Shown piece after piece: positions 7,245 to 64,000 of a DNA stretch of 64,000 bases. The DNA comes from a virus. The notes beneath the pieces were generated by a model. The model saw nothing but the letters and a program-made list of their open reading frames with translations. It was not told where the DNA came from and did not search any database. Made by a program: the position numbers and the translations under genes. Where the stretch lies: UHGV virus genome UHGV-1352889. One strand, 5' to 3'. Position 1 is the stretch's first letter. The number at the start of each line of letters is the position of its first letter.

Positions 7245-7751
7245 ATGCACGCGCACGAAGCAATCAACGCAATCGTTTCAACCAAGGTAAACTCACAGGC
7301 TTTTCCCGACCTGCCGGAAGGAAAGGAATCCATGAACGATGCCGTCAACCACCCGAAGCATTACACCTCCCACCCCAGCGGAATCGAAACCATAGAAATT
7401 ACTGGCAAGCTTCCCTTCGCATTAGGGAATGCCGTCAAGTATTTGATGCGGTCACAGTACAAGAAGGACCGTATTGAAGACCTCAAGAAAGCACGATGGT
7501 ATTTGGAGTACCACGCTAAGCACTGGTCCAAGGTGTTTGAAACGTTTGACCTTTACCTTATCCTTGAACAGTTCAGGCGCACGGTGATGAGCCATAGCTA
7601 CCAACGTAGTCCCGAAGATTCCATTCTGGTACGGCTCTTCTATATCTGGGCGCATGATAAGTTGGTTGAGGTAAACCCCGCATCGGAATTGCAACGATGT
7701 ATCGGCGAGATTACCCAGCTAATAGAATCCCTCGAAGCGAAACAGAACTAA
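7245..7751 (+). CDS. hypothetical protein (168 aa)
   Basis: ORF; last gene of plus-strand block, followed by terminator. Confidence 0.5.
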   Translation: MHAHEAINAIVSTKVNSQAFPDLPEGKESMNDAVNHPKHYTSHPSGIETIEITGKLPFALGNAVKYLMRSQYKKDRIEDLKKARWYLEYHAKHWSKVFETFDLYLILEQFRRTVMSHSYQRSPEDSILVRLFYIWAHDKLVEVNPASELQRCIGEITQLIESLEAKQN

Positions 7752-7758
7752 AACAAAA

Positions 7759-7788
7759 CCCCCGGAAGGAAATATCTTCCGGGGTTTT
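7759..7788. terminator. bidirectional rho-independent terminator (convergent blocks)
   Basis: 9-bp GC stem CCCCGGAAG/CTTCCGGGG with 7-nt loop, A-run upstream and TTTT downstream; lies between the end of the + block (7751) and the end of the - block (7875). Confidence 0.7.
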
Positions 7789-7874
7789 CGCTTAGAACCC
7801 AAACAACTTACAGTCCAAACAGAATGATGTCGTTGCGGATTCTTTATACCATGCAGTACCTATGATGTCAATAC

Positions 7875-8258
7875 CTAACTGACAGGAACTTCGTTTTTCT
7901 CAATGCTCGCCATCAGTTCGGCGAGCTTTTTCTTTCTGGTTTCGAGTTGTTGTTCGAGCCTCTCTATCTCTTTGACGTAATCATGGCACGCATGCTTGGC
8001 CGCATCCTCATAGGTGAGGAAGACAGTGTGGTTGAGATATCCGTTTTCTATGGTTCTGAATCGGTGGTTGATGTATTCGATTCTGACACGGGAAACGAAA
8101 CATTCAAAGGCGACATCAGATACTTCAACGGCTCTCACTGTGGGCATGCCACCGCAATGTACGTTAATGAACACCGTGCATCCCTTATACAGGGGGAGCT
8201 TGCTAGCTTCTTCTGCGGTGAAGGTTTGGTTCTTCATACGGAGGGAAGTATGTACCAA
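7875..8258 (-). CDS. hypothetical protein with C-terminal coiled coil (127 aa)
   Basis: ORF; C-terminal heptad-like IERLEQQLETRKKKLAELMASIEKNE; preferred over overlapping + ORFs. Confidence 0.5.
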   Translation of the reverse strand: MVHTSLRMKNQTFTAEEASKLPLYKGCTVFINVHCGGMPTVRAVEVSDVAFECFVSRVRIEYINHRFRTIENGYLNHTVFLTYEDAAKHACHDYVKEIERLEQQLETRKKKLAELMASIEKNEVPVS

Positions 8259-11900: not shown

Positions 11901-14900
11901 ACTGATGTTGTGGCCGTCCCGCAGGTCCGCAAGCATTTGAACCCTGCCGAAGTTGTTCTGAATGAAGTCAAGAATTTCTCTGGTCCTGTAGTTCTTGGCT
12001 ACACCTTCGAACAGGAGTTTATAATTCGAAGAGGCTCCCGGGGGAGCTGACACCAGCGGAAGTTTCAACTCGTCATGGAACGCGGCCAATGCTTGCATGT
12101 TGTCCAGCACTTGGCTTATGTTTTCGGACAACTCTGTCTGGTGCGCTTCGGCATGAGCGATTGCGGCTTCCTGCAACAACTTCGTCAGGCCATCATACTT
12201 CTGTGCCATCTCCCCGTTGGGATGTGCAATGATGTCCTTCATCGTCCGGGTGAAGTCTCCGGCATGGCGACCTACGGCCATGTAGGTGCGATGAAGATAA
12301 TTCATCTCCGCGGCGTTGTTAGCCATACGGCTATCCCCAATGAGCTTGGCAATAGAGATTTGCGTCGCGGCAATTTCTTTACGGGAATCGGCGATGACAT
12401 TGTAGACCAGTTGACCTACAACCCCTTGTGACAGAAGCCATTGTTCCGCGGCATCCCGCTTAGCCATATACTCTGCCTGTTTCTGACGGCGTGCATCGAG
12501 GATAGCGTTGTCCCGTTTCAGCCACACGGAACCAGCAGGAGTAGTTACGCCAGCACGAGTTACACCCGCTCTCTTTGTTGCAGCGTAGAAATCATCGTTG
12601 GCTTCCCGGATGATTTGTTTAGCTTCGGCCCGTGCCCTAGAGATGTCCTGAATCATAGGAGCAATGGCGGGGTGGTTTGTACTCTCCGCATAGAGGTAGT
12701 CGTTGCGAAGGTTGGACCACCTGTCCAGAAGTTCATCCATAGAGAAGGGACTGTCCACCTCGTTAATCATATCCGCGAGGTAGTTCTGCGTATCGCGGGC
12801 AAGACTAAAGTAGGAGGTTTCCAGATTGGCATCCCCTGTCGCGGAGATACGAGAGCCAAGGTCGGAGAGCGATTTGTGAATCTGCTGGGAGAGCATGGGG
12901 AGAGCCACCGTCTTGTCCAGCATGGCCCCATATCCCTTGACGCTCATGTCTTTAATCCGGCGCATCATGTCATTGATTTCCAATCGCCCTTCACTATTAA
13001 GCGCAAGGGAGTTGGCTAGACGCACCGCTTCCGCGTGCCTATTGACGGCATCGGTAACGGTCTTCTTAGCCAACGCGATACGGAAGTCGCGGGTCTGTTC
13101 GTGCTGGCGAACTTCTGCTTGGGCCTCTGCGTTAATGCGTGCAACGGTTTCAGGGTCAATGTCGTTGTCCATATTCCCCGACATGTCGAGAATGGACTTG
13201 CTCCATTTCTTTCGCGTGGCGGCATCCCAGCCCAGACTATCCGCACGGCGTTGAAGCATATCACCGATTTTGTCGATGCGTTTAATACTGCGCTCGTATG
13301 CCGCATTCACGTTGGTCCTTTGTTCCAGCACAATCAGCTTCTGTTCCTCGGACTTAACATTGATGCCAGCTTTGTCCCAGCCCTTAGACACGCCTTGCCA
13401 TACGTTCTTAACACTAGTCACCCAGTTCCCGGCATTCGTACCGATAATCTCTGCACCCAGACCGAAGGACAGTCTTTGGGTCATGTCGGTCTCATAGGCC
13501 AACGGGTTGAAATAATCTACCTCATGGCTCATGGTGTAGTCCGTATCGTCTACTTTCCATGATGGGGTGCGAGGCATATCGAACCACTTGCCGGGGGTTA
13601 TGTCCGCGACGCGGTCCACATAGGAATCCCATTCAGCCGCATTCTTGGCGGCGGTGGTTCCGTCCATGTCGTCCGCAGTTTGCCGCACATCTCTAATCAA
13701 ATCCTTAAGCCATTCAATGAGGCGCACGTGAACGGGTCTCCTGCCCCCAGCCGCTTCGGCATAGCGAGCCAAATCCGTGAGGGTTACATTGTCTCCGCTC
13801 ACCTCCGCAATCATGAAGTTCATGACAGGATTGGAGAACGCAACACTGGCAAATTCGTCCGGGCCACGGAGACCATAGTTGAGGTCGGAGGCAAGCGCGG
13901 CGATGGCATTCATCTCATTGATGTCCACGCTAGCTTCATACATAGCGGTGAGGCTATCAATGAATTGATTATAGTTCTCCGCAACTGCGCTTCTAATCTT
14001 GTCCATCCGCTGGGAGTAGTCCGCGTTAGTGGCACGAAGATGACGGTCAATGAGGTGGATGGCCTCATGCAGTACTGTTCCCGTTACGCTCTCAATCGCA
14101 TTGTCCCGGTCCATGTACAGGTCAATGACACCACCGACAAGCTTCCCGTCTGTTCCGTTCATGTAGGTGATACTGGCGGGGGAGGCTATATTGGCAGGAG
14201 CATTGGTGGCTCGGATAGCCACGTCCAAACCAGCGGCATGCAATGCGCGGAGCACTCCGTCAATGGCCGCGGCCTGTGCAGGAGATGCCTTGACGCGAAG
14301 GTCCGAAAGGATGCCGTAGGCATTTACGCCCGTCCCGTCAGAGGGGAGATTGAGAGCGGAGACCCTATCCCCCCACTTGGTGCTGGGTGTCCCTCCCTCG
14401 CCCATGTTGTACATGCTTGCGTGCGGAGAGACGACAATGGTTTCTCCCGTGTTGCTCGTAACCAGCGGGGCATTAATCCCGGTCATCTCGTTCAAGGAGA
14501 CGAGCTTGGTTCCGCGGTCAAGAGGTGAACCGGATGAAAGCCATGCCCCAGTGTTGGGGTCGAACGAAGTAATGGCGGCATCCAAGGTATCCACGGTTTC
14601 CACGGCTTCGGGGGTAACTACTCCCGTATCTACCATGTTAGTGACGGAGGCAATGGCTTGGTCCCTCTCCTTCCGTGCCGTGAGTTCCGGGGATTCCGTG
14701 GTAGCCGTGGGTTCCGTGGGCACCGGGGATTCCTTGGTAGCCGCGGCTTCCGTCAATCCGTTAATAACGTTAATGGCGGCATCGAGGTCTTCATCTCCTG
14801 TAGTAAGGATGGACAGGTCATCGTCTACTTCGATAACCTGAACCCGGTCTCCCATAGCATCAAGGGCTTCCGAAAGCATGGTGCGCATGGTGTCGAGGTT

Positions 14901-24370: not shown

Positions 24371-25135
24371 CTATTTCCTTGACAATAGGGTTAGGGCATA
24401 GGCATGTCGCGCATCGCATCGGTTCATCCAGCCCGTAAGGAACTTCGCCTTCACTGGATTGGCCCTTACAATGGAGTGGTAGCGGGCACGACAAGCGCGG
24501 TCCAGCGAATCGAGAACTACCATTTCCTCCCATGATAGGACGGCGTCCGTCCATTTGGCTTGAGTAGTTTTTCCCCACTTGCCGTCAATATCAATGTCGA
24601 GCATGCGCTGGACAACCTTAGTCGTTCCCGCCGTACCCATGTTGAAGGTCATGTCACGGAGCATGAATTCAATGGGGTAGCTTCCTGCAACACCCTTAGA
24701 GACTAGTGGTTCCGTATTGGCGAGAACATAGCGGAGGCATTCGTCCCATGCCTCTTCTCTATCCCCCCGGTCCAACATGGACTTGATTAGATTGAATTCC
24801 TTAGGTTCAATCCCATCACAGATACCGGCAATCTCCCACGTGCCGCCGCCGTCGCCAGAGGGGAGACGGGTAACGCGCAGAGAATCGGGACCTGTAATCT
24901 TATAGTCCTCCATGTTGAGAATCTTCTTGGCCATTCCTTTGCGGATAATCTCTGCCGGGGATTCCACGGGACCCACGGATTCCACGAATTCCGGGACGTC
25001 CATAGGTCCCACGGAAACCGTGGGTTCCGGTTGTATCTTTTTCCATATAGCATCAATGGTCTTCTCCCCAAGGATACCGTCGGGTGAAGTTCCCGCCCAC
25101 TTCTGTATGTCCTTTACTTTGTCTTTCCTTGTCAT
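24371..25135 (-). CDS. endolysin-like protein with N-terminal peptidoglycan-binding motif (254 aa)
   Basis: N-terminal SPDGILGEKTIDAIWKKIQ matches the DGxxGxxTxxAxxxFQ PG_binding_1 signature; catalytic domain type not resolved. Confidence 0.55.
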   Translation of the reverse strand: MTRKDKVKDIQKWAGTSPDGILGEKTIDAIWKKIQPEPTVSVGPMDVPEFVESVGPVESPAEIIRKGMAKKILNMEDYKITGPDSLRVTRLPSGDGGGTWEIAGICDGIEPKEFNLIKSMLDRGDREEAWDECLRYVLANTEPLVSKGVAGSYPIEFMLRDMTFNMGTAGTTKVVQRMLDIDIDGKWGKTTQAKWTDAVLSWEEMVVLDSLDRACRARYHSIVRANPVKAKFLTGWMNRCDARHAYALTLLSRK

Positions 25136-28116: not shown

Positions 28117-28785
28117 TTATTTGACCGTGTCAACCATAACTTGCACGCGCCGGGGATAATCCGCAGAACAGGGGGCGGTGCTCGCGTTCTTTTCCCAGCC
28201 GCGTTTCACGGCGACGTCCAGTACATCTTTATCGTACTGGTAGTCGAGGCTCACCCCGAAGTGACCAGCGAACGCGTCATGATAGACGAGGTAGGTATTG
28301 CGCATCCTCTTAATGGCCTTAAGGTCGCTGTCGTGCCGGAACCCCCACACGCTACCATCAACGATGCCAGTCCATTCAGGATAGTCTGCGACGTTCGTCC
28401 GCTTCAATCCCATGTAGGCAGAGATGAAGATGACATCCTTCTCGGTGACAATTTGGCTGGCCATAACGTCGAGGAGGTCCGCTTCGCGTACCGGGCATTG
28501 GGTGTCGAGCACCATGATATTCTTTCCCGCATGCTCTGCGGCGATGGAGAGGATAGCCTCGTCGGGCGCGTCAGGGACACGGGCAACGTTCAGCCCCTCC
28601 GCTCTGGCCCATGAGAGAACGCCGAGGTCTTCGGACATGACGGTAACGTTCTCGCCGGGAATGTTCAGGGATTTAAGATAGTTGACTGTGTAATGGATTA
28701 GGTTCGATTCCCTCTCCGGCCAATGGAGGGAAGGGTTATACGCGCTAATAATATAATGGAAGTTGTTGTCCATGCCCGCTATCAT
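28117..28785 (-). CDS. hypothetical protein (222 aa); weak resemblance to nucleotidyltransferase-like folds
   Basis: ORF; the assignment is a guess from local sequence patterns only. Confidence 0.45.
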   Translation of the reverse strand: MIAGMDNNFHYIISAYNPSLHWPERESNLIHYTVNYLKSLNIPGENVTVMSEDLGVLSWARAEGLNVARVPDAPDEAILSIAAEHAGKNIMVLDTQCPVREADLLDVMASQIVTEKDVIFISAYMGLKRTNVADYPEWTGIVDGSVWGFRHDSDLKAIKRMRNTYLVYHDAFAGHFGVSLDYQYDKDVLDVAVKRGWEKNASTAPCSADYPRRVQVMVDTVK

Positions 28786-28848
28786 ACACAGGAAAAGATT
28801 CTGGTCAAGAAATTTTTAATTGGTATGACACAGCCGTATCACAACGAA

Positions 28849-28899
28849 GGAACCCACGGAACCCATTGTGGCCATTTGGCCGTGGGTTCCGTGGGTTCC
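28849..28899. promoter_or_regulatory. 17-bp perfect inverted repeat built from tandem GGAACCCAC 9-mers (GGAACCCACGGAACCCA…TGGGTTCCGTGGGTTCC)
   Basis: Arms 28849-28865 and 28883-28899 are exact reverse complements; inner TGGCCA…TGGCC partially pairs; lies in the 176-nt gap between two minus-strand genes, no T-run. Confidence 0.55.
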
Positions 28900-28961
28900 G
28901 TGGGAGTTTAACGTCCTGACATTTCGATGTACGAAATCGATAAGCCAGTTGTACTGCTATA

Positions 28962-29774
28962 TCAAAGTGTCGTGAACTGTAATCCCTTAAACCATTGATT
29001 CATTTGGGAGATTTCGGGAGCGGCAACGTAGGGGGTCCAACAGTAATAACTTCCAAGGCAGTCAACTTCTACTCCACCTATCGTGGTGCTCCATGTGACT
29101 GTTCGCATGGAAGCCTTATTCCCATTCGCCCAATATTTAATGGGGTAGCCTACATAGGCAAGTATCGAAAAGGTCTGCCATACACCAGAGGATGTTTTTC
29201 TCTCATACTTGAAGCTTAAATCGATACTTACATCCAGATAAACTGCTCCACTTTCTGATTCAATATACCACATATTATCCATAAATCCGCTTCCATAATG
29301 TGGTCCGTATATACTGTTTTGGTATAGCCAGCCGTCGTCATAGTAGGGCCAATCGCGGGCTTCCTGCAATGTGACTTCATGTGGAGTAATTTCAGTTCCT
29401 TCCGGCACTCCCTGCCATGCGAACCAAAGTGCTGGCTCGTATACTCGATATTGAGTACGAGCATCGACGCCTCCGGGAATGCCATTCTGACTAGGCAACT
29501 TCGCCGGAAGCGCGATGGAGTTAAATCCTTTCAATGTGTTGAAGACTTTCCACGCGTCCACAAGGTTCTTGCACTTAATCCCCGGTTTATGCGTTGCGTT
29601 TGGTGAAATAGCTACGGCTCGACCTAGAGGTACAGGAAGCCCGGAAACCGTGGGTCCTTGGGTTCCATACCACAAACTACTTTTATATTGTTCAGTGTAG
29701 TCAGGATTATTCTTCCTCATTAAAACCGAAATATCCTTCGACGAGTTCGTGGGGAGTAAGAGGTGAGACTTCAT
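28962..29774 (-). CDS. hypothetical protein, Trp/Tyr-rich (270 aa)
   Basis: ORF; stop/start overlap with upstream gene. Confidence 0.55.
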   Translation of the reverse strand: MKSHLLLPTNSSKDISVLMRKNNPDYTEQYKSSLWYGTQGPTVSGLPVPLGRAVAISPNATHKPGIKCKNLVDAWKVFNTLKGFNSIALPAKLPSQNGIPGGVDARTQYRVYEPALWFAWQGVPEGTEITPHEVTLQEARDWPYYDDGWLYQNSIYGPHYGSGFMDNMWYIESESGAVYLDVSIDLSFKYERKTSSGVWQTFSILAYVGYPIKYWANGNKASMRTVTWSTTIGGVEVDCLGSYYCWTPYVAAPEISQMNQWFKGLQFTTL

Positions 29775-32488: not shown

Positions 32489-33523
32489 TCATTTTTCTTG
32501 GGACTTCATAGTTAATATGAAGCTATTCCAGCGGGCTACCGCTTCTTCGCGAGTGCGGCCATGAATGGAAAAGCTATGAGGAAGGAGCTTGACCCCGTTG
32601 CAGACGACATAGCAATGTTCCTCTCCGGGATAGATGGTTTCCCCCACGACCTCCGGGATTTCTCCGCAGTAGAAGCAAGGACGTGGATGGGCGTCGCAGG
32701 CTTCAAAATGCCGTCGCACCTCTTGCCCCACTCTTTCGACAAACATATCAACAATATGCTTCGGCACAATTTCTGTGACCCCGGAATCCGTGGAATCCAC
32801 GGGTCCCCCGGTGCCTTCGTCCTCGGATTCCGTGGCTTCCTCGTAGTTCAGGGGATGGTCCAGCCCCTCGTCGAAACAGGAAGCACAGGGTCCCACGGTT
32901 CCGGGCAAGTCCCCATACTTACAGGTAGCGCAGGGGGAGAGGACATCCTCTTCATCCCCTTTATCCTCTTCATATTCCGGGTACTCAATTCCCCGCTCCT
33001 GTCGGCAATGAGAGCATGGAGGATTGCAACGGAGGTTATCCCGGTGAGTGCAAGTATTGCACGGTTCGATGACATCGTCGTTCTCGTCCGTACCTTCGGC
33101 ACATGGCGCAGATTCATCCGGGGTATAATTCTGATAGCCGTTGCAGGAGATGCAGGGTTCCTCTTCGATAGATTTCCCCTTATATTTACATGTCTGACAG
33201 GTCTGCCCCGTCATCTCGGCTTCTCTCCGCTTTGCTTCTTCCCGCTTCATCATCTCCACCTCTACCAACTTGTTGGTATCGAAGGTGTAGCAGGGAAGTC
33301 CGGGAGTGAGAGCACACTTCTGGCAGGGGGATTGCACCAGCAAGGTATCACGGAATTTGCAGAGGGAGCACCTCCGTGCATCCTCGCTTGCCGCGGTGTC
33401 CGTCGCTTGCGTGGATTCCGTGGATTCAAAGTGGCTAAAGTACATGTCACAACTGGCGCAGGGTTCCGCGGTTTCGGGGAAGTTGCTGTATGCGCAGGTC
33501 CAACAATTTGGTTCGTCGGTCAT
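32489..33523 (-). CDS. multi-zinc-ribbon protein: five tandem CxxC-x11-14-CxxC modules plus C-terminal Lar-like (restriction alleviation family) domain
   Basis: CWTC…CASC / CSLC…CQKC / CQTC…CISC / CNTC…CSHC / CATC…CASC separated by acidic linkers; terminal CFYCGE…HCYVVCNG…EEAVARWN matches the Lar-family pattern CPFCGG…C..CG…EAIxAWNxR. Confidence 0.6.
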   Translation of the reverse strand: MTDEPNCWTCAYSNFPETAEPCASCDMYFSHFESTESTQATDTAASEDARRCSLCKFRDTLLVQSPCQKCALTPGLPCYTFDTNKLVEVEMMKREEAKRREAEMTGQTCQTCKYKGKSIEEEPCISCNGYQNYTPDESAPCAEGTDENDDVIEPCNTCTHRDNLRCNPPCSHCRQERGIEYPEYEEDKGDEEDVLSPCATCKYGDLPGTVGPCASCFDEGLDHPLNYEEATESEDEGTGGPVDSTDSGVTEIVPKHIVDMFVERVGQEVRRHFEACDAHPRPCFYCGEIPEVVGETIYPGEEHCYVVCNGVKLLPHSFSIHGRTREEAVARWNSFILTMKSQEK

Positions 33524-40927: not shown

Positions 40928-42130
40928 TTATAATCCGAAGGCACTACCAATAATGTCCCCGACTGCGGTCGGCCCGGCGGGTGGCTGGGTCTCTGGGGCT
41001 TTGGAGCTACCACTGTTAGCGGAGGGGCGGGCCTTGCGAAGTTTGGCCACCTTCACGTTGAGAGCCTCGATTGTCGCGCGAGCATCTGCCAGTTCCTTAA
41101 CCATGAGTTCGGCCAGTGCGCCATCCATGAAGGAACCATTATTTATCTTGTGAGCAAGATGGCGGGCATGCTTCACATTCTCTTCGGTAATCTCCGTGGT
41201 CATGCCCAGTTCCTTGGCGCGTTCCTGCATCGCTTCCAACGTGTAGTTGTCGAGATTGACGGTGTAGGTTGCACCTTCGGATTTGCCGCCGCGGCTGGCC
41301 TTCAACTCTTCCACATACTTGTCGGCTTCGGCCTGATAGTTTCCGTGGGCGACAATGGCCGCGTCGCGGACCTTAGCCATGCGGACAAATTTGAACACGG
41401 CAGAATCGCTGATGCCCAGTTCCTTCCCAATGGCCTCATACGCTTCTTCCCGGTCGTACTCGTCGAGGTCAGGATTAAGGGCAACTTCATTCAGCTTGTC
41501 CATGTCCAGAGATGCACCAGAGGCGCGGGCAATCTCTGCAAGTTTGGCGTTAGCCTTATTGTACGGGGCAGTTACATTGGTCTTGTATTCTTCGGTTGCG
41601 GTGAAGGCATAGCCGCGTACAATTTCTCGCAGAGATTCAAGCTCTTCATTGCTTGACGTGGACTTACCCGCTTCTTCCAGCTTGGCCTTCAAGTCCGCGA
41701 TTTCTTTCTTCGCGCCCCTCAACTGGACGCGCATTTCAGCGAATGCCTTGCTCGCGGCCTTGCTCGCTTTCTGTTCCTTAGGACCGTTGTTCTGTTCTTC
41801 CTTCTTCCCTTCTTCGTTTTCTTCCTCTTCGTTTTCCCCCTCTTCGTTCTGTTCTTCCTCGGTTTCCTCGGATTCCGTGTCATCCGGGGGAACCGGGGTT
41901 CCCGTGGTATTGACTACTTCATCATCCGCGATGCGGGGACCAGCGTCCGGCATGACTACCGTACCATCCGGGGATTCAATGGGAGCCGTGGGGTTAGCGG
42001 GATTGGAGGGTTGAGTGGAATCCGTGGAATCCGGGGCGAACAGGGTCTGTTCGAAAATGCTATGTACGTCGTTGTGAATGGCACCACCTATGATGCCCTC
42101 CGCTACTGCGGGAATATTTACATTATCCAT
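40928..42130 (-). CDS. acidic coiled-coil protein, scaffold-like (400 aa)
   Basis: EEEQNEEGENEEEENEEGKKEE tract then long heptad-like segment (IADLKAKLEEAGK…). Confidence 0.45.
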   Translation of the reverse strand: MDNVNIPAVAEGIIGGAIHNDVHSIFEQTLFAPDSTDSTQPSNPANPTAPIESPDGTVVMPDAGPRIADDEVVNTTGTPVPPDDTESEETEEEQNEEGENEEEENEEGKKEEQNNGPKEQKASKAASKAFAEMRVQLRGAKKEIADLKAKLEEAGKSTSSNEELESLREIVRGYAFTATEEYKTNVTAPYNKANAKLAEIARASGASLDMDKLNEVALNPDLDEYDREEAYEAIGKELGISDSAVFKFVRMAKVRDAAIVAHGNYQAEADKYVEELKASRGGKSEGATYTVNLDNYTLEAMQERAKELGMTTEITEENVKHARHLAHKINNGSFMDGALAELMVKELADARATIEALNVKVAKLRKARPSANSGSSKAPETQPPAGPTAVGDIIGSAFGL

Positions 42131-57522: not shown

Positions 57523-57912
57523 TTAGAATTCGGCTTCATTGGCTTCCTGCACATCAATAATCCAGTCAAGACTGTCAATGCACTTGTTCAGCTGGTCACG
57601 CTTCTGGCTAAGCTCGTACCGGTCGCGGAGGTTCTGGTTCTGCGCCTTCAAGTTGGCGAGACGTTCATTGGACGGGCGTCCCAGCTTCTTGCCATTCTTG
57701 CTATAGCCGGGGCGGGGAGAATCCGCAACCGTGGTAACGTGCGTACTATTCATCAAGTTGCCAAGACCGTCAAGGAGATTGATGAGCTTGACAATGCGGT
57801 TGTGGTTATTGCGAAGGGACTTCAATTCCTCTTCGGCTTTTTCCACCTGTGAGCGAAGCTCGGATTCAAGAGCTTTCAACTCGGTAATCATGTTGTCGTC
57901 GGTCGTAGTCAT
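57523..57912 (-). CDS. coiled-coil protein (129 aa)
   Basis: Heptad-like N-terminus (ITELKALESELRSQVEKAEEELKSLRNN). Confidence 0.5.
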   Translation of the reverse strand: MTTTDDNMITELKALESELRSQVEKAEEELKSLRNNHNRIVKLINLLDGLGNLMNSTHVTTVADSPRPGYSKNGKKLGRPSNERLANLKAQNQNLRDRYELSQKRDQLNKCIDSLDWIIDVQEANEAEF

Positions 57913-58042
57913 GTTTATTGCTGGTTTGCTTTTTATTATTCTATGGGATTAGCGGAACGGGATTGGCCCCGCCCCGGAATCCCGGTGACGAGGCCAATGT
58001 ATCATAGCTTAGATTTTTGTCAAGAAGTTTTTAGAAGAAATT

Positions 58043-60913
58043 TTACATGGTTTCCGCAAGTACCTTAATATGTTCATATTGTGAATACACCCTTGCCTTC
58101 GTTTCTGCGCTTGCTTCCTTCAACCAAATGTCGATTGGCATGAAGAAGAAACGCTTTGTACGCTTGGGGTCATCGAGGCGTTTGACATTTTGACGTATCA
58201 GAGAATCGGAACCGTAGGACGCGATGAGGTCTCGTTTGAAGTTAGCGTCTGCCCAGTTCTCCACCTTCTCCATGTCTCCGAAGTTCTTACGGACATAAGC
58301 GAGGATGTTGCGCATAGCGGTAAAGTCGCCCGGTATCTTTTTGGAGAGCCTCTCTCCCTTCGTGTCCGTATCATTGGGAGCCACGGGGACAAGGTACTTC
58401 GTCAGGTCAGTATCATTGCCTCGGCAACTGGCATACTGTTCCGCGAGGAATGCACCGACTTTTTCCAGATTAGCCCAACGGTATTCGCCATCTTCATGAG
58501 CGTCTACCATGTATTTAATCTGTGCCCAAAGTTGCTGGTTGTCAAGTTTGAAGAGCTTCTCCACCGCCCAGCTGTTGGCACTAAACCCGGCAGGGATTTC
58601 TTCCTCCGGCGTGGTGCGTTCACCTAAGATTACCGGGTAGTAACGGCGAGTGCCTGTGGTATCTCTCAATACCTCTTCTTGGTTCGTACTCCCAATGATA
58701 CTTGCGCAGTACTCATAGGTTCCCGGAGAATGGGCGAAAGCAACACGGCAACTTTCAGATTCCCCGGTAATGATTCGCTTCAACTTACTCTCCTTTATTT
58801 TGTTAGCGACTTCTTCATCAATCTCGTCCAAGACGATAGCAGAGTGCCGGGCCATCTGGACCACGCTATCCGCACTATTCAATCCTTCGATGGAGCTAGC
58901 CACGTCATTGCGGACCCCACGGAACAACCAGTCCGTGGCTTTCGTTTTACCCAGCCCCTGCGCACCTGTGAGCATGGGAACGTAGTTCTGCGGGAAGCTG
59001 GTCTGGGATTCCACATGGGTGAGGAAGCAGAGACGGCGGGTCACGCGCTTCCACAAGGTGACGAGCCATGTCGTGAGCACCATGTCCCGGTACTTGTCCG
59101 GGGTCCAGCCTTCGGGCATATCTATGTTCTGATTCATGGGAAGGTAGTCCAAGAACGCACGCAAACGGTCCTGCCCGTCCCAAGGACGAGAACTGACGAA
59201 CGTAGCCAGCGGGTGGTAGTAGTTGGTCTGCGCAATACTTGACAACGCGTCGCGAAGTCGCGGAGTAGGAATGGCCTGACCGGGAACAATCAACTGCCAG
59301 AAGCTCGAAATCTTGCTCAATATAGTATCACTCGTCTCGTACCACCTGCTGTTCTTAAAGTCCAAGAGCAGGAGTTCGTTCGTGTTCATTCGACGGAAGG
59401 CACGGAGATTTAGGCCATGATGAAGAAGATACTTGATGTTCTCGTCGGTCAGGATGGGGATGCTCTTGCCCGCCTTGTTCTTTCGGACATAGGGGAACTT
59501 GAGAGAGCAGAGCTTCAACGCGCTGACCTCCGGGAGAGGGGTGTTCGTATTTACCGGAGCAATTCCCTGCATGAAGCACTTCATCAGGAGAGGGTCTTGA
59601 CACCACGGCTCAACCCCTGCCTTCTTCTCGGCTTCCCCCTCCAACTCCGTCAGGTACATGTCGAAGAGCCATTGCACCGACATAATCTCCGGGTTCGCGC
59701 CATTGCAACTGGCATGGAAGCAGTGGAAGTAGGACTGCCGGGGGTACTGGGGATTGGGGTAGAAGCGAAGGTCCGTGTTCTGGCTATTGCCCGATTTGCC
59801 TCCCTTGCACTGTGGGCACTCACCATAGAGGCAACCGTCCCCCTTAATATAGTCCATGCGGGAGAGGCCTTCGGCGGTATCATAATACTCGTTCACCTTC
59901 AACCACGCAATGAAGTCCTCGAATATCTTGGGACGGGAACTGCCGGGAGCCACGGACGGAAGTTCGTAACTGACCGCCCGGTTCTTGTCGTATTGAAGGT
60001 AGTCCGCTTTCGCCTTCTCCATATCGGGTACATGGAATCGAGGGGTTCCGGGGGTTCCGGGGATGAAGGTGTCCAGATAGAAGAACTGCATCCGCGCAGG
60101 GTCGGTACAGGCCATGTCGAGAACAAATCCGGTTCCCTCGTGGATGTACTGCGCGAGGGAATGATATACTGCTTTGTGGAGATAGATGCGTTCATTTGCC
60201 AATCGCTTCACGTCCAGTTCATCATTTCCCTCGTCCTCCACCACCTGCGGATTCTGGTTCAGGTATTGGAGCGTAGAGTTGGAGATTTGGAAGAATGCCT
60301 TAATCCCCTGATTGGGACTTACGTATGCGAAGAGGAAGCCATCCAGCTGGGGAAGCTTCTCCTGCGCCGCGGCGAGAAGAGATTCCGCAGTATGTTTCTT
60401 GTTCTCCTTGAGGTCTACGTCAATTCCGAAGATACCCGTATGCCGCCACGATGTTCCATCTACACTGACGAGGCTACGGTTGGTATAGTACCTTGCACCC
60501 TTGCTGTCGAGGGCGTAGTCATACAATCCGGGCTTGCTTAGGAACTGGACAGAGGGTACGATGGCAGGAAGCGCGGGCTTAATATCCTTGGCTTCTACAC
60601 CGTGCTTGTGCCAGTTGGAGAGGATGCTCTTATATACGGGAGGCATGGAGAGCGAGTTCTCGTCCAGCTTCCCCTGCATCACCTTAAAGAGTTGCACCTG
60701 ATAGTAATACTGCATCAGTTCCTGATTTTCTACCGTCATGCCCATGAGAAGGCGAAGGACCTCCGGCAGGGCAATGGCGACGGCGCGGTTGCAACTGCCC
60801 CCGGTGGGGAGTTTCTTCATACCTTCGGCCAGCTGTAGTTGAGATATGCGGGGTGCGGTAAAGGTCAGTTCAAGTTTCTGAACTGTTTCATCGTTAAGTA
60901 GTTCTATGGTCAT
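58043..60913 (-). CDS. putative primase-helicase (Zn-finger + P-loop NTPase, 956 aa)
   Basis: CPQCKGG…SYFHCFHASCN zinc-binding element resembling primase CHC2-type fingers; Walker A LTGAQGLGKTKATDW and Walker B AIVLDEIDEE in the C-terminal half. Confidence 0.55.
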   Translation of the reverse strand: MTIELLNDETVQKLELTFTAPRISQLQLAEGMKKLPTGGSCNRAVAIALPEVLRLLMGMTVENQELMQYYYQVQLFKVMQGKLDENSLSMPPVYKSILSNWHKHGVEAKDIKPALPAIVPSVQFLSKPGLYDYALDSKGARYYTNRSLVSVDGTSWRHTGIFGIDVDLKENKKHTAESLLAAAQEKLPQLDGFLFAYVSPNQGIKAFFQISNSTLQYLNQNPQVVEDEGNDELDVKRLANERIYLHKAVYHSLAQYIHEGTGFVLDMACTDPARMQFFYLDTFIPGTPGTPRFHVPDMEKAKADYLQYDKNRAVSYELPSVAPGSSRPKIFEDFIAWLKVNEYYDTAEGLSRMDYIKGDGCLYGECPQCKGGKSGNSQNTDLRFYPNPQYPRQSYFHCFHASCNGANPEIMSVQWLFDMYLTELEGEAEKKAGVEPWCQDPLLMKCFMQGIAPVNTNTPLPEVSALKLCSLKFPYVRKNKAGKSIPILTDENIKYLLHHGLNLRAFRRMNTNELLLLDFKNSRWYETSDTILSKISSFWQLIVPGQAIPTPRLRDALSSIAQTNYYHPLATFVSSRPWDGQDRLRAFLDYLPMNQNIDMPEGWTPDKYRDMVLTTWLVTLWKRVTRRLCFLTHVESQTSFPQNYVPMLTGAQGLGKTKATDWLFRGVRNDVASSIEGLNSADSVVQMARHSAIVLDEIDEEVANKIKESKLKRIITGESESCRVAFAHSPGTYEYCASIIGSTNQEEVLRDTTGTRRYYPVILGERTTPEEEIPAGFSANSWAVEKLFKLDNQQLWAQIKYMVDAHEDGEYRWANLEKVGAFLAEQYASCRGNDTDLTKYLVPVAPNDTDTKGERLSKKIPGDFTAMRNILAYVRKNFGDMEKVENWADANFKRDLIASYGSDSLIRQNVKRLDDPKRTKRFFFMPIDIWLKEASAETKARVYSQYEHIKVLAETM

Positions 60914-61905
60914 TTGAGAATGAATACTTTGTTTTCGGGGTTAATGATTTTCGAAGTGTAATCAAAAGTTATTTGCATACGGTAGATGATGTCATCCAAG
61001 TACTTGAGGGCAGTGTTTCGGCAATTACCACAGGACCGGGCGAGTTCGAGGTACTCCCGTTTCGTCATGGAGGCTCCGTTCAGCCGCCCCATTGCACGAA
61101 GCACAAAGTGCAGTATGCTGTCCGGGAAGGTGAGGTAGATGCGCTTAATACTGCGCCGGAAGTCCTCATCGATTACCCAACGGGCGAAGTGGTCTTCTTC
61201 CTTGAGCAGGTCACAACGCCCAGCGGCGGCTACTACATCTTTATATTTGGCGTAGTACCGCCACTTCCAGTCGGGAAGTACTCCACCCTCCGTAAGATGT
61301 TGGAGATAGGGGAAGACCTCGTACTTAGGCCAAATGCTCGTCTCATCTATATAGTTGAATGCCCTTGCGTACAGGAGGTCAAGGGAATGGTCGCTAAGTT
61401 CACCAAGGTAGGTGGTGCTGGCGAATGCGCGTACCATTTCCTTGGTCGGCATGAGTGGGACGTTGTAGAAAAAGTCCAGCATCTGGACGAGGGCTTCACA
61501 ATATCCTTCCGTGCCATAATTGGAATAGGCCGCCGTGATGGTGTGTCTACCGTAGGGTGTCCATACCGTTTGAGGAATGGAGTAGACGAATTGGTAGAAG
61601 TGCTCCCAGCGAAGTTCTCGCGGGGTGGAGGGTGCGATAGGTATGTCGTACATGAGCGGAACGGTAGCATGGTTGAGACAAGTTGTCAAGCTCAAACCGA
61701 GACAAAACGTTTTTCTCTTTGACCACGGAACCCACGGTAGCCGGGGGAGAACGTATGCTAAGGAGTTGAGAGCAAATGAGTTATGAAATGAGACACAGAG
61801 AAAGCTGTCCGTTGTATCACTGGGAACTCGTTGAACATAAATGGGTAATATAATTGGGTCCGTGGGTTCCGTGGGTTCCGGGGAGACAAAAGTTTGTCTC
61901 ATCAT
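60910..61905 (-). CDS. hypothetical protein, first gene of the minus-strand replication block (331 aa)
   Basis: ORF; N-terminus PEPTEPTD encoded by tandem GTGGGTTCC 9-mers; immediately downstream of AT-rich noncoding region. Confidence 0.5.
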   Translation of the reverse strand: MMRQTFVSPEPTEPTDPIILPIYVQRVPSDTTDSFLCVSFHNSFALNSLAYVLPRLPWVPWSKRKTFCLGLSLTTCLNHATVPLMYDIPIAPSTPRELRWEHFYQFVYSIPQTVWTPYGRHTITAAYSNYGTEGYCEALVQMLDFFYNVPLMPTKEMVRAFASTTYLGELSDHSLDLLYARAFNYIDETSIWPKYEVFPYLQHLTEGGVLPDWKWRYYAKYKDVVAAAGRCDLLKEEDHFARWVIDEDFRRSIKRIYLTFPDSILHFVLRAMGRLNGASMTKREYLELARSCGNCRNTALKYLDDIIYRMQITFDYTSKIINPENKVFILK

Positions 61906-61954
61906 AAGTCATTGATTTTCAACAGGGGAACTTTCCTTTTTTTATATTGAGACA

Positions 61955-62025
61955 TGAGACATATAAATAAATAAATTATAATATATAATAATATAATAGG
62001 GGTATACATATATATATATATATAG
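61955..62025. repeat. AT-rich tract with (AT/TA)n microsatellite
   Basis: …aaataaataaattataatatataataatataat…atacatatatatatatatatag…. Confidence 0.8.
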
Positions 62026-62196
62026 GAGGGAGCGGACTTGTCTCGCGTCTCACCCCGCCTGATTTAGTTGTAACTATATGCGGCTCAAGCACTTAACCCC
62101 CTGTCTCAACACGTCTCCGCCTTGTCTCACTTGGCTCACTTTTTCACAATCCTTTAACTCTCAATGCTTACCGCAGATTAGGTTTCTGTCTCACCC

Positions 62197-62236
62197 AAAA
62201 GAAAACCCCGGAAGCAGGACGAGCCTACCTCCGGGG
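62197..62236 (-). terminator. candidate rho-independent terminator for a minus-strand transcript arising in the noncoding region
   Basis: Stem CCCCGGAAG/CCTCCGGGG (7 bp + 1 mismatch), A-run AAAAGAAAA on + strand upstream; shares the 14-mer CCTCCGGGGCGATG with the terminator at 35428. Confidence 0.4.
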
Positions 62237-62365
62237 CGATGACGAAAACATCATACCTATCAAATAACCACGGCCACTATACCAAACCTCCAGCCAATGT
62301 CAAGACCTTTGTGCGTCCTCTTGTACGCACGCGCCCACGCGGGTGTACGCCCCATTTCCAAATCC

Positions 62366-62438
62366 CCTGAATTTAATCGAGGGTCCTACCCTAGAACGCG
62401 CCGCACGGGGCGGTCCGCTACAACTATCCACCCGGACC
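62366..62438. repeat. about 73-bp element, copy A (GAATTTAATCGAGGGTCCTACCCTAGAACGCGCC core)
   Basis: 34-bp identical core plus about 85% identity over about 70 bp with copy at 62845; flanked by a 10-bp inverted partner GATTAAATTC at 62468. Confidence 0.7.
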
Positions 62439-62844
62439 CCATCCCCTCCTTCTACCTCGCCACACTGGATTAAATTCGTAAACGCGCGGACTCTGTCGAT
62501 TTCCTCTTGACTTTCTCCCCTGATGTGGTATGTTGCACCTGTTCGCTCCGAACGGCAACCGAACCAGCTAAGCTCAATGCTTCTGGCTATCCCAAGCAAG
62601 GAACTTGCTCGCCACAGGAGCGGACTAAACACTCTCCTTTCTACAGGCATTTTCCATAGTTACGCCCGTGGGTAGTCTCGTCAAGCTACCTGCGGGCTTT
62701 TTCTTTACCGCCAAATCCGCGAGAGCCGCTCCGTCGCATTATGCCCGCCGTGCGCAAATTTGGTCGATGGTAGTGCCCTATCTCCTGTTTCATGACTAAT
62801 GTACCATCTCGCTACCTATACCCCGTCACACTCTTGTAAATTTG

Positions 62845-62918
62845 CCCGAATTTAATCGAGGGTCCTACCCTAGAACGCGCCACAACCGCTGGTCCGCTAT
62901 AACTACCTGCCCGAAGGG
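62845..62918. repeat. about 73-bp element, copy B
   Basis: See copy A; spacing about 479 bp. Confidence 0.7.
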
Positions 62919-62949
62919 TATGCCCGCCTTCTAGGTCGATACGTCCCCC

Positions 62950-63076
62950 CCCGTGGAACGGCCGCGTGTCGATTTTGCTTGACATGGCAGGAATGGGGTG
63001 CAGACCAGATGAGGCTGAAACAGACCAGAAGTATATCCCGCCCGTGGAATGGCCGCATGTCGATTTTGCTTGACAT
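62950..63076. repeat. two copies of a 35-bp direct repeat (CCGTGGAAyGGCCGCrTGTCGATTTTGCTTGACATG), period 91 bp
   Basis: 33/35 identical; each contains TTGACA; CAGACCAGA duplicated between them. Confidence 0.7.
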
Positions 63077-63209
63077 GCCCAGAAGGGTACTCCCTCCCCC
63101 GTACCCCACGGAAAAAATTTGACCCAACTATTTACTATGGGCCACGTGCAACCCCGGAGCCTGGGAAACCGTGGTGGTGTTTGGATTTCCTTGGCATCCC
63201 ATTACCCCC

Positions 63210-63435
63210 TGTACCCACGGAATCGGTGCATCACGGAGCCTTTTTGCCCCTGATTGCACCGGGAACGGTATATCCCGGGGGGCCTGCCTATCTCCCACAT
63301 GTAGCGGAATCGGTATGATAGGCCACCGTATTGCAACGGGAATGGTATACCACCTGCCATGAACTGCCCTCGCCCCTGTCACGGGAACGGTACGCCATGC
63401 AACCCATTGAATCCTCGGAATCAGCGGTAGCCGTT
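63210..63435. repeat. iteron-like array of about 6 ACGG(G)AAyGGTA motifs at 34-45 bp spacing
   Basis: cccacggaatcggtg, accgggaacggtat, agcggaatcggtat, acgggaatggtat, acgggaacggtac, ctcggaatcagcggtag. Confidence 0.55.
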
Positions 63436-63796
63436 TGAGCATGTGGGACTTGTAGGGAAATGGTGTGCAATGGAGACCGAGGAATCCGAGGGTGCAATAC
63501 CTGTTTCCTATTGACACCCTGATATGCGTAACTCGTTGATACTCTAAGCAATCCGCTTCCATACTTCGCATAATACATATAATGCAAAATCGGCAAATGG
63601 TAATCCTACTAATCCGATAGGAATTGAAATTGAAGGTGCCGGAGAAGGCAGAAAAGGGGCAGGGTCTTGCCCTCAAATTGTCTGGTCTGGGACTGGTTAA
63701 GTATCAACAACATGTGAAGCATACCCATGCGGGTATAGGTATTTTTCCCTCATTAATAGTCAAATATTGGACTAATGGTTTTACATTTTTGTAAAG

Positions 63797-63846
63797 CCCC
63801 TATATCTTGTACGGCATATTGTTGCACGCCCCTATATCTTGCGTAC
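63797..63846. repeat. 14-bp direct repeat GCCCCTATATCTTG ×2
   Basis: Copies at 63797 and 63827. Confidence 0.6.
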
Positions 63847-63935
63847 CTGTAGCGGTGCAATCGGCGTGCGGCCAGTCCTTGCGGATTTGCCGTCAGATAG
63901 TCAACTATCGGACTATCTATCTATCTTCAAAGATT

Positions 63936-64000
63936 GTTAGGCTGGACTTAAAAGTTAGACCGGACTTACAATGTTAGGCTGGACTTAAAAGTTAGACGGC
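63936..64000. repeat. tandem 18/19-bp repeats (GTTAGGCTGGACTTAAAA / GTTAGACCGGACTTACAAT), at least 3.5 copies, truncated by window end
   Basis: A-B-A-B arrangement = 37-bp higher-order unit ×2; runs off the window edge. Confidence 0.8.

Follow-up and report, generated by a model that had tools for sequence, protein, structure and literature searches.

Intrinsic terminators place a G+C-rich hairpin of the sense-strand RNA just past a stop codon and follow it with a U-rich stretch, and in phage T7 RNase III sites or 3' protective hairpins lie between the early genes. Ribbon-helix-helix (RHH) proteins use operators and centromeres composed of contiguous repeats, such as the omega repressor heptads of pSM19035 and the MetJ met-boxes, with units of 7-8 bp. 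Iteron-type origins of phages and plasmids, as for example lambda ori and P1 oriR, combine an AT-rich block and initiator-specific iterons with adjacent initiator or helicase genes, and their iterons change with the initiator. Coding minisatellites (VNTRs), finally, consist of tandem in-frame units whose copy number varies between near-identical genomes.

We analyzed a stretch of 64 kb from the viral genome UHGV-1352889 (in the following, the window), in which an intergenic palindrome at 28849-28899 and a recurrent 9-mer had been noticed, and compared both with these systems. The palindrome resembles intrinsic terminators as a G+C-rich sense-strand RNA hairpin that stands just past a stop codon and is followed by a U-rich stretch and the next promoter, and a related clade carries a canonical example at the same position. 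Unlike typical intrinsic terminators, it has a stem of 17 bp, a loop of 17 nt with an inner helix and an interrupted U tract, and tandem 9-bp units, which are also found elsewhere in the genome, make up its stem. As in RHH operators, these units follow one another head-to-tail without spacers, close to promoters and the origin, with both direct and inverted orientation and a variable number of copies; in contrast to them, the unit measures 9 bp, no cognate protein was found for the arrays, and the arrays lie off the -35 and -10 elements at a variable distance from the promoter. With coding VNTRs they share tandem in-frame units of three codons in acidic Pro/Thr/Ser linkers and a copy number that differs between near-identical genomes, but the same 9-bp unit also occurs in non-coding hairpins and origin arrays and is common to many unrelated genes of one genome. 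The origin-like region corresponds to iteron origins in its AT-rich block, its initiator-specific iterons, its adjacent initiator and helicase genes and the change of iterons with the initiator, whereas this lineage has an extra class of repeats, which appears to be initiator-independent and is conserved across replicon types. The 9-bp arrays hold the place that host-factor sites (DnaA boxes, IHF sites) take elsewhere, and their sequence matches none of them; the likeness to the DnaA box TTATCCACA is restricted to 5 of 9 positions.

General features of the phage genome

From about 8 kb to 62 kb nearly all genes are located on the minus strand. The genome contains a replication block (primase-helicase, PolA, helicase, exonuclease and a RuvC-like resolvase) and, on the plus strand at 3.6-7.7 kb, genes for a ligase, a thymidylate synthase and a nucleotide kinase; an endolysin and a 3214-aa protein are encoded in the window as well, and the phage looks to be of the lytic type. 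An attP or parS site was rejected as an explanation of the palindrome, since none of the scanned ORFs (about 45 of about 65) was recognized as coding for an integrase, a recombinase or a partition protein. Neither megablast nor tblastn with the terminase revealed a close cultured relative, and no GenBank phage has a DNA polymerase with more than 27% identity. No tRNAs and no Rfam families were found in the window. Shine-Dalgarno sequences are absent ahead of all genes, and about 13 sigma-70-like promoters of the form TTGAC(A/C)-N16-17-TAnnnT, with AT-rich upstream flanks, lie in the minus-strand gaps (8900-62310); several of them are followed 5-7 nt later by an ATG, which looks like a leaderless start. 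A hairpin at 7748-7795 (AAAACCCCCGGAAG/CTTCCGGGGTTTT) separates the end of the plus-strand block (7751) from a minus-strand gene ending at 7875. It has a T-run after it on the plus strand and a complementary A-run before it, and it looks like a bidirectional terminator.

Certain restriction sites are very strongly avoided in the window. We observed no GATC (196 expected) and no CTCAG/CTGAG (57 expected), one GCAGC/GCTGC (89 expected), two GAGTC/GACTC (71 expected) and four CCWGG (132 expected), and the sites ATGCAT, CGTACG, CTGCAG, GAGCTC, GCCGGC, GCGCGC and GGGCCC are absent. Codon-pair usage is distorted by this avoidance, with no GAT-CCN and no GAG-TCN, and the avoided sites may help to identify the host.

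An intergenic palindrome at a probable operon boundary

Positions 28849-28906 of the plus strand read GGAACCCAC GGAACCCAt tgtGGCCatttGGCC GTGGGTTCC GTGGGTTCC GTGGGag. The initial annotation had reported a perfect palindrome of 17 bp in this intergenic gap, and we could confirm it: the arms at 28849-28865 and 28883-28899 are complementary at 17 of 17 positions and form the longest perfect local inverted repeat of the 64-kb window. Read as minus-strand RNA, the 5' arm (28883-28899, GGAACCCACGGAACCCA) is composed of two 9-bp units, with an extra partial unit at 28900-28906, the 17-nt loop covers 28866-28882, and the 3' arm (28849-28865) is UGGGUUCCGUGGGUUCC. Within this loop lies an inner 4-bp stem, in which GGCC at 28878-28881 pairs with GGCC at 28870-28873. 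On the 3' side of the stem a U/pyrimidine-rich tail follows at 28838-28848 on the minus strand (UUCGUUGUGAU; in relatives UUCGUUGUGU, UCUUUGUGU or UCUCCGUUGUGU). Between the stop codon of the upstream gene and the main hairpin the same strand carries a small hairpin, AUUUCG...CGAAAU (28921-28941), which is missing in the relatives with an alternative 3' flank. The complete 176-nt gap folds with -64.6 kcal/mol (z = -5.1), a value that was reached by 0 of 200 shuffles, and the hairpin segment alone folds with -45.5 kcal/mol. A small ORF over the hairpin (28723-28911 on the plus strand, or a minus-strand frame) was rejected because of 1-nt indels beside the stem in relatives.

The hairpin starts 62 nt past the stop codon (28962-28964) of the co-directional minus-strand gene 28962-29774, whose transcript it presumably ends. 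Its own end lies 40 nt ahead of the sigma-70-like promoter P28808 (TTGACC-N16-TATGAT, 28781-28808, minus strand), which is conserved in relatives, and the ATG at 28773, 7 nt past P28808, is likely the leaderless start of gene 28117-28773. The same layout of terminator and then promoter, with canonical U-tract terminators, is found directly ahead of the promoters 49943 and 35392, and a further canonical terminator is located at 62235-62195, downstream of promoter 62303. As regards the features of an intrinsic terminator, the palindrome shows a stable stem, a position past a co-oriented stop codon and a structure that is conserved over sequence. Its tail contains 6 U in 11 nt, while the other terminators of this genome have clean U tracts, and a consensus terminator scan did not call the palindrome at 28849-28899.

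We consider it somewhat probable that the palindrome acts in the minus-strand RNA as a hairpin of the intrinsic-terminator type, or as one protecting a 3' end, at an operon boundary, because of its position, the restriction of its stem changes to G-U and the fact that a distant clade has, in this place, a canonical terminator of unrelated sequence. According to this reading, the minus-strand operon ending with gene 28962-29774 would be transcribed into two 9-bp units and then into their inverted copy, and the nascent RNA would fold into the 17-bp G+C-rich stem with its U-rich tail. There, we infer, RNA polymerase would terminate by release or would at least attenuate transcription, and the sigma-70-like promoter 40 nt downstream would start the next transcription unit. 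What speaks against this reading is chiefly that the U tract is interrupted and that stem (17 bp) and loop (17 nt) are unusually long.

These features could also belong to a dsRNA processing or stability element (an RNase III site or a 3' protective hairpin) that acts in a polycistronic transcript without any termination. A perfect 17-bp stem with an inner 4-bp helix exceeds most terminators, the U tract is weak, and the G-U pattern indicates a function in RNA. However, the promoter follows directly, as it does at the canonical terminators of this genome, and what the distant clade has at this position is a classic terminator complete with U tract. We therefore regard processing in place of termination as improbable, whereas the terminator-type reading can reasonably be varied to include a role in RNase III processing or stability.

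A different unit of promoter and terminator was observed on the minus strand at 62195-62303, where the canonical terminator CCCCGGAGG...CCGGGG UUUUCUUUU stands about 70 nt past the promoter TTGACA-N16-TATAGT with no ORF between them. This unit is conserved in one relative (L088), a similar arrangement is present in another (L001), and it possibly encodes a small RNA next to the origin.

The hairpin in related viral contigs

Conservation of the palindrome in relatives, which the initial annotation had left as a check, was observed: the hairpin is kept in about 30 related viral contigs (designated by L numbers where they have to be distinguished). L086 and L054 keep it although their upstream gene is just 49% identical and their 3' flank is unrelated, and in L086 the identity to the window begins or breaks exactly at 28904, at the outer edge of the repeat run beyond the 5' arm. 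In L017, L024, L040 and L072 the 5' arm is one unit shorter, yet the pairing still comprises 13 bp. All stem changes among the relatives turn G-C into G-U, a pair that forms only in the minus-sense RNA; the outermost stem pair is changed in about 10 loci, and the inner stem is GGCC/GGUC in most relatives, where the G-U pair is again possible in the minus-sense RNA only. L127 has two C-to-U stem changes and folds with -46.3 kcal/mol on the sense strand versus -38.6 kcal/mol on the opposite strand. As no double compensatory change of the stem occurs among the relatives, which are a shallow sample, the backing for the stem structure comes down to these G-U changes and to a positional replacement.

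The latter was observed in a distant clade (L124, L125 and L192-L194), whose downstream gene is 44-45% identical and which has in the same gap an unrelated perfect hairpin, ATTGCGGGAATATACA/TGTATATTCCCGCAAT, followed by CGUUUUAUGAG. This hairpin is a predicted intrinsic terminator of the textbook kind, and its occurrence at this place is the strongest evidence for reading the palindrome as a terminator.

The region between hairpin and promoter is variable in length. L064-L086 carry here a 27-nt tandem repeat, GTTGTGTCATACCCACTAGCGTGTGCG, corresponding to positions 28810-28848 of the window, which has one degenerate copy that forms a small hairpin. Relatives have 0-2 extra copies, by which the distance from the hairpin to the -35 element of P28808 ranges from about 40 to 94 nt, and this variation argues against the role of a phased operator.

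We also considered that the palindrome has no selected function and is a by-product of slippage and template switching in an unstable 9-bp minisatellite that happens to lie in a gap, where it may persist as micro-homology at a module-exchange boundary. Array copy number does vary everywhere, and the break of identity in L086 coincides with the outer edge of the flanking repeat run. Inversions are seen as well: CCACGG/CCGTGG flips occur in the coding arrays, and between L192 and L193/L194 the loop of the canonical terminator is inverted (GAAAA versus TTTTC) while the stems are identical, an apparent signature of palindrome-mediated template switching. On the other hand, the stem is invariant in about 30 genomes with varying flanks, the substitutions preserve pairing, and the distant clade has a functional equivalent at the same site, so that a palindrome free of selection seems hardly likely to us.

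A 9-bp unit in genes and in non-coding DNA

The 9-mer GTGGGTTCC/GGAACCCAC had been described as recurrent, and this is borne out by its frequency: both strands together contain 10 exact copies, whereas dinucleotide shuffles have 0.71 on average and 4 at most, and 37 matches are found when one mismatch is allowed (18 expected). The non-coding DNA, which totals about 5.6 kb, carries 6 of the 10 exact copies (28849, 28882, 28891, 61727, 61862 and 61871), and these fall at just two loci of the window. The remaining four lie in genes (14707, 16343, 25020 and 49877), where 1.2 copies are obtained by synonymous-codon shuffling (p ~0.02) and 0.6 by codon permutation. Throughout the lineage, similar 9-bp units occur that combine the core CC(A/C)CGG with a spacer of 3 nt, and the 9-mer is one of this family. 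For the family pattern CNCGGWWNCC we counted 66 matches in the window versus 13.5 under a Markov-3 model, along the lines of the enrichment check that had been proposed for the motif. Within genes there are 56 matches, as compared to 13.3 after synonymous shuffling, 11.0 after codon permutation and 22.8 under a 3-periodic Markov model of order 5.

To a certain degree such a recurrence might be a mere effect of codon usage and amino-acid composition. The codon phase xxC NCG GWW NCC, which encodes [PTSA][EDV][PTSA] in acidic Pro/Thr/Ser linkers, is shared by 49 of the 62 genic family matches. Moreover, part of the codon bias was traced to the very strong avoidance of restriction sites, by which Glu/Asp-Ser and Asp-Pro codon pairs are channelled; the avoidance of GATC, GAGTC and CCWGG steers the codon choice to GAATCC and GATTCC. 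However, the excess in genes persists under synonymous shuffling, codon permutation and the 3-periodic order-5 model, exceeding all codon-aware nulls, and therefore codon usage is no explanation; in addition, more than half of the exact copies lie in non-coding DNA. An origin of the recurrence in codon usage alone is thus largely refuted and very improbable, and the earlier suggestion that one motif is common to peptide linkers and non-coding DNA holds.

A search of the literature for the 9-mer strings gave no paper. Scanning 185,579 species genomes for the hairpin pattern as a host repeat or uptake sequence gave 34 unrelated single matches, scattered over diverse high-G+C taxa, with no enriched genome and no host signal. 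A REP, MITE-like or DNA-uptake repeat was rejected because the unit occupies just two non-coding loci in the window and no species genome is enriched. A link of the 9-mer to the 5' UTR of a regulator gene was likewise rejected, since the CCCCGGAATCCCGG-like sequence at 57973 forms just an ordinary stem close to where transcription starts. At this place (57960-57998, minus strand) a stable 5'-UTR hairpin, UUGGCCUCGUCACCGGGAUUCCGGGGCGGGGCCAA, starts just past the -10 element of promoter 58023, upstream of the regulator-like gene 57523-57912.

The variant sites named by the initial annotation do encode peptide linkers (SPVPTEPTATTESPEL, QPEPTVSVGP...VESVGPVESP and ATESEDEGTGGPVDSTDSG), and three arrays with a 9-bp period were delimited on the minus strand: at 14662-14751 in the ORF of the 3214-aa protein (linker ...TKESPVPTEPTATTESPELT...), at 24948-25028 in the endolysin-like gene (QPEPTVSVGPMDVPEFVESVGPVESP), where length and unit sequence vary among relatives, and at 32772-32850 in gene 32489-33523 (again ATESEDEGTGGPVDSTDSG), where relatives show indels of 9, 15 and 18 bp. 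In general, linkers with conserved flanks differ between relatives of otherwise about 80-95% identity by 9-, 15- and 18-bp indels and by swaps of units, including the CCACGG/CCGTGG flips. Relatives whose remaining sequence agrees to at least about 90% show differences of copy number and unit sequence in coding arrays as well as in the hairpin arm and the arrays of the origin, and in another type of primase-helicase a (CCACGGATT)n tract ranges from 2 to 6 copies. The 9-bp family thus appears to behave as an in-frame minisatellite, and descent of the units by slippage or template switching would explain their identity at the codon level better than selection at each site. In genes the unit would be tolerated, as 9 bp equal three codons and give a flexible acidic Pro/Thr/Ser linker whose length can vary; inverted arrays in non-coding DNA would form hairpins, and the stem of the palindrome would be built from this minisatellite-like, lineage-specific unit with its CC(A/C)CGG core and 3-nt spacer. 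A collagen-like Gly-X-Y coding was rejected, as the runs of 9-10 triplets lie in the -1 frame and not in the frame of the ORF.

The 9-bp arrays of the origin-like region

The tandem 9-mer at 61862-61879 had been assigned to the 5' end of a replication gene, which turned out to be wrong. ORF 60910-61905 is over-extended by 84 codons, and alignment with L089 places its real start at ATG 61653. The segment 61654-61905 is non-coding because its divergence from L089 includes indels that are not multiples of three, and conservation begins at ATG 61653. It is part of an origin-like non-coding region (61654-62300) with a (TA)n/AT-rich block at about 61960-62035, iterons, 9-bp arrays and the promoter TTGACA-N17-TACCGT-N7-ATG(61653). 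The left array (61856-61883, minus strand) reads CCCCGGAAC CCACGGAAC CCACGGACC; the right array (61723-61742, plus strand) is inverted, reads CCACGGAACCCACGGTAGCC and is complementary to the left array, 122 nt away, at 15 of 15 positions. An iteron palindrome, GAGACAAAAGTTTGTCTC, stands beside the left array at 61883-61900, and GAGACA iterons also extend over 61690-62210. The plus strand of the left array forms one of only two canonical G-quadruplex motifs in the window, the other one (41970-42010, plus strand) being antisense to a linker in gene 40928-42130; a quadruplex at the left array is a lead only.

The region has the AT-rich element, the iterons and the adjacent initiator and helicase genes of an iteron-type origin, and iterons and initiator change together. 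Among the relatives we recognized the iteron types GAGACA (as in the window), GGACAA, CTAACA, GTTGTTA and TTGTTCC and one further type, and relatives with other replication cassettes have different initiators, with primase-helicases 27-31% identical to that of the window. The joint change of iterons and initiator between the window, L001, L014, L026 and L089 appears to be a clear case of replication-cassette exchange. The CC(A/C)CGG-N3 array was kept in 9 of 9 origin contexts, while iterons and initiators were swapped in the 6 that have recognizable iterons. The arrays always lie beside the AT-rich/iteron block, mostly in constant orientation, and in relatives their units are (CCACGGAAC)2-4, (CCCCGGTTC)6, (CCACGGTAG)5 or (GGTTCCGGG)6. 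The window, L089 and L014 allow pairing between the left and the right array, and L003 has a stem of about 37 bp with (CCACGGTTT)3 arms. As the array is located inside the exchanged cassette and is kept all the same, its survival suggests a DNA-level function that is independent of the initiator, probably separate from the role of the unit in the RNA hairpin.

Two observations concern the vicinity of this region. In L003 (2840-2960) and L014 (1680-1790) a cluster of arrays, or very long hairpin, (CCACGGTTT)3 ... (CCACGGAAC)3-4 ... (AAACCGTGG)3, lies upstream of a promoter, at a position equivalent to that just past the right end of the window. In the window itself, the sequence from 62300 to 64000 comprises about 1.7 kb without a convincing ORF, contains internal repeats of 94, 51 and 26 nt (each present twice) and is about 90-95% identical in relatives with different replication cassettes.

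The conservation of the arrays in the origins of every replicon type would fit a DNA-binding role, which the array could possibly also have at 28.85 kb. We therefore weighed whether the arrays are duplex-DNA sites for a conserved phage or host factor binding cooperatively to contiguous CC(A/C)CGG-N3 units of either arrangement, direct or inverted, in the manner of RHH repressors and centromere-binding proteins, with the palindrome at 28.85 kb as a second site besides those of the origin, regulating P28808 or organizing the DNA. Origins with exchanged iterons all keep such an array beside the AT-rich/iteron block. While the 3-nt spacer varies (AAC, TTC, TTT, TAG, ATT), core hexamer and 9-bp phasing stay conserved; three sigma-70-like promoters (P28808, P61689 and one in L003/L014) have an array upstream, and the phage encodes several HTH or winged-helix proteins. 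However, none of these proteins could be linked to the motif, and the small ORFs showed no match to RHH, HTH or other families. As compared to RHH arrays, contiguous direct and inverted units are present, but a fixed position relative to the promoter is not observed at P28808, where the distance to the -35 element changes among relatives. Furthermore, the arms in L127 differ in sequence (GGAATCCAC versus GGAACCCAC) and yet pair as RNA, the distant clade has an unrelated terminator at the site and no other array, and a period of 9 bp would put successive sites on different faces of the helix. Taken together, we judge binding of a factor to the arrays, with the palindrome included, to be rather unlikely and continue to favor the terminator-type hairpin for 28.85 kb. 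For the origin arrays by themselves a protein-binding role is plausible, while at P28808 it is weakened by the variable distance.

Broader still is a speculative proposal, to which we attach only a minor likelihood: the CC(A/C)CGG-N3 arrays might be a functional, initiator-independent origin component throughout the lineage, either bound by a conserved host or phage factor or adopting non-B DNA, whose expansion-prone unit was recruited repeatedly for the terminator stem and for interdomain linkers. One module would then have three roles and would mark points of gene and domain exchange.

Implications

The initial annotation had offered a protein-binding site, a structural DNA or RNA element, or a modification/recognition site as functions of the motif. 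A structural RNA is favored for the palindrome by its position, its folding energy, the restriction of stem changes to G-U and the terminator of the distant clade, whereas we found nothing that speaks for a site of modification or recognition. In the palindrome we probably see an ordinary terminator, with a stem composed of a lineage-specific 9-bp unit of variable copy number. Taken alone, the hairpin is a routine regulatory element, and its use lies mainly in drawing operon boundaries of an uncultured phage without close GenBank relatives. The repeat family is the more interesting part, as one 9-bp unit is present in protein linkers, in the stem of a terminator and in every origin variant of the lineage. 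The linker VNTRs are ready strain markers for the phage in metagenomes. If it is true that the origin arrays bind a factor, they would represent a new accessory origin element and could provide a handle on the host or on the mode of replication.
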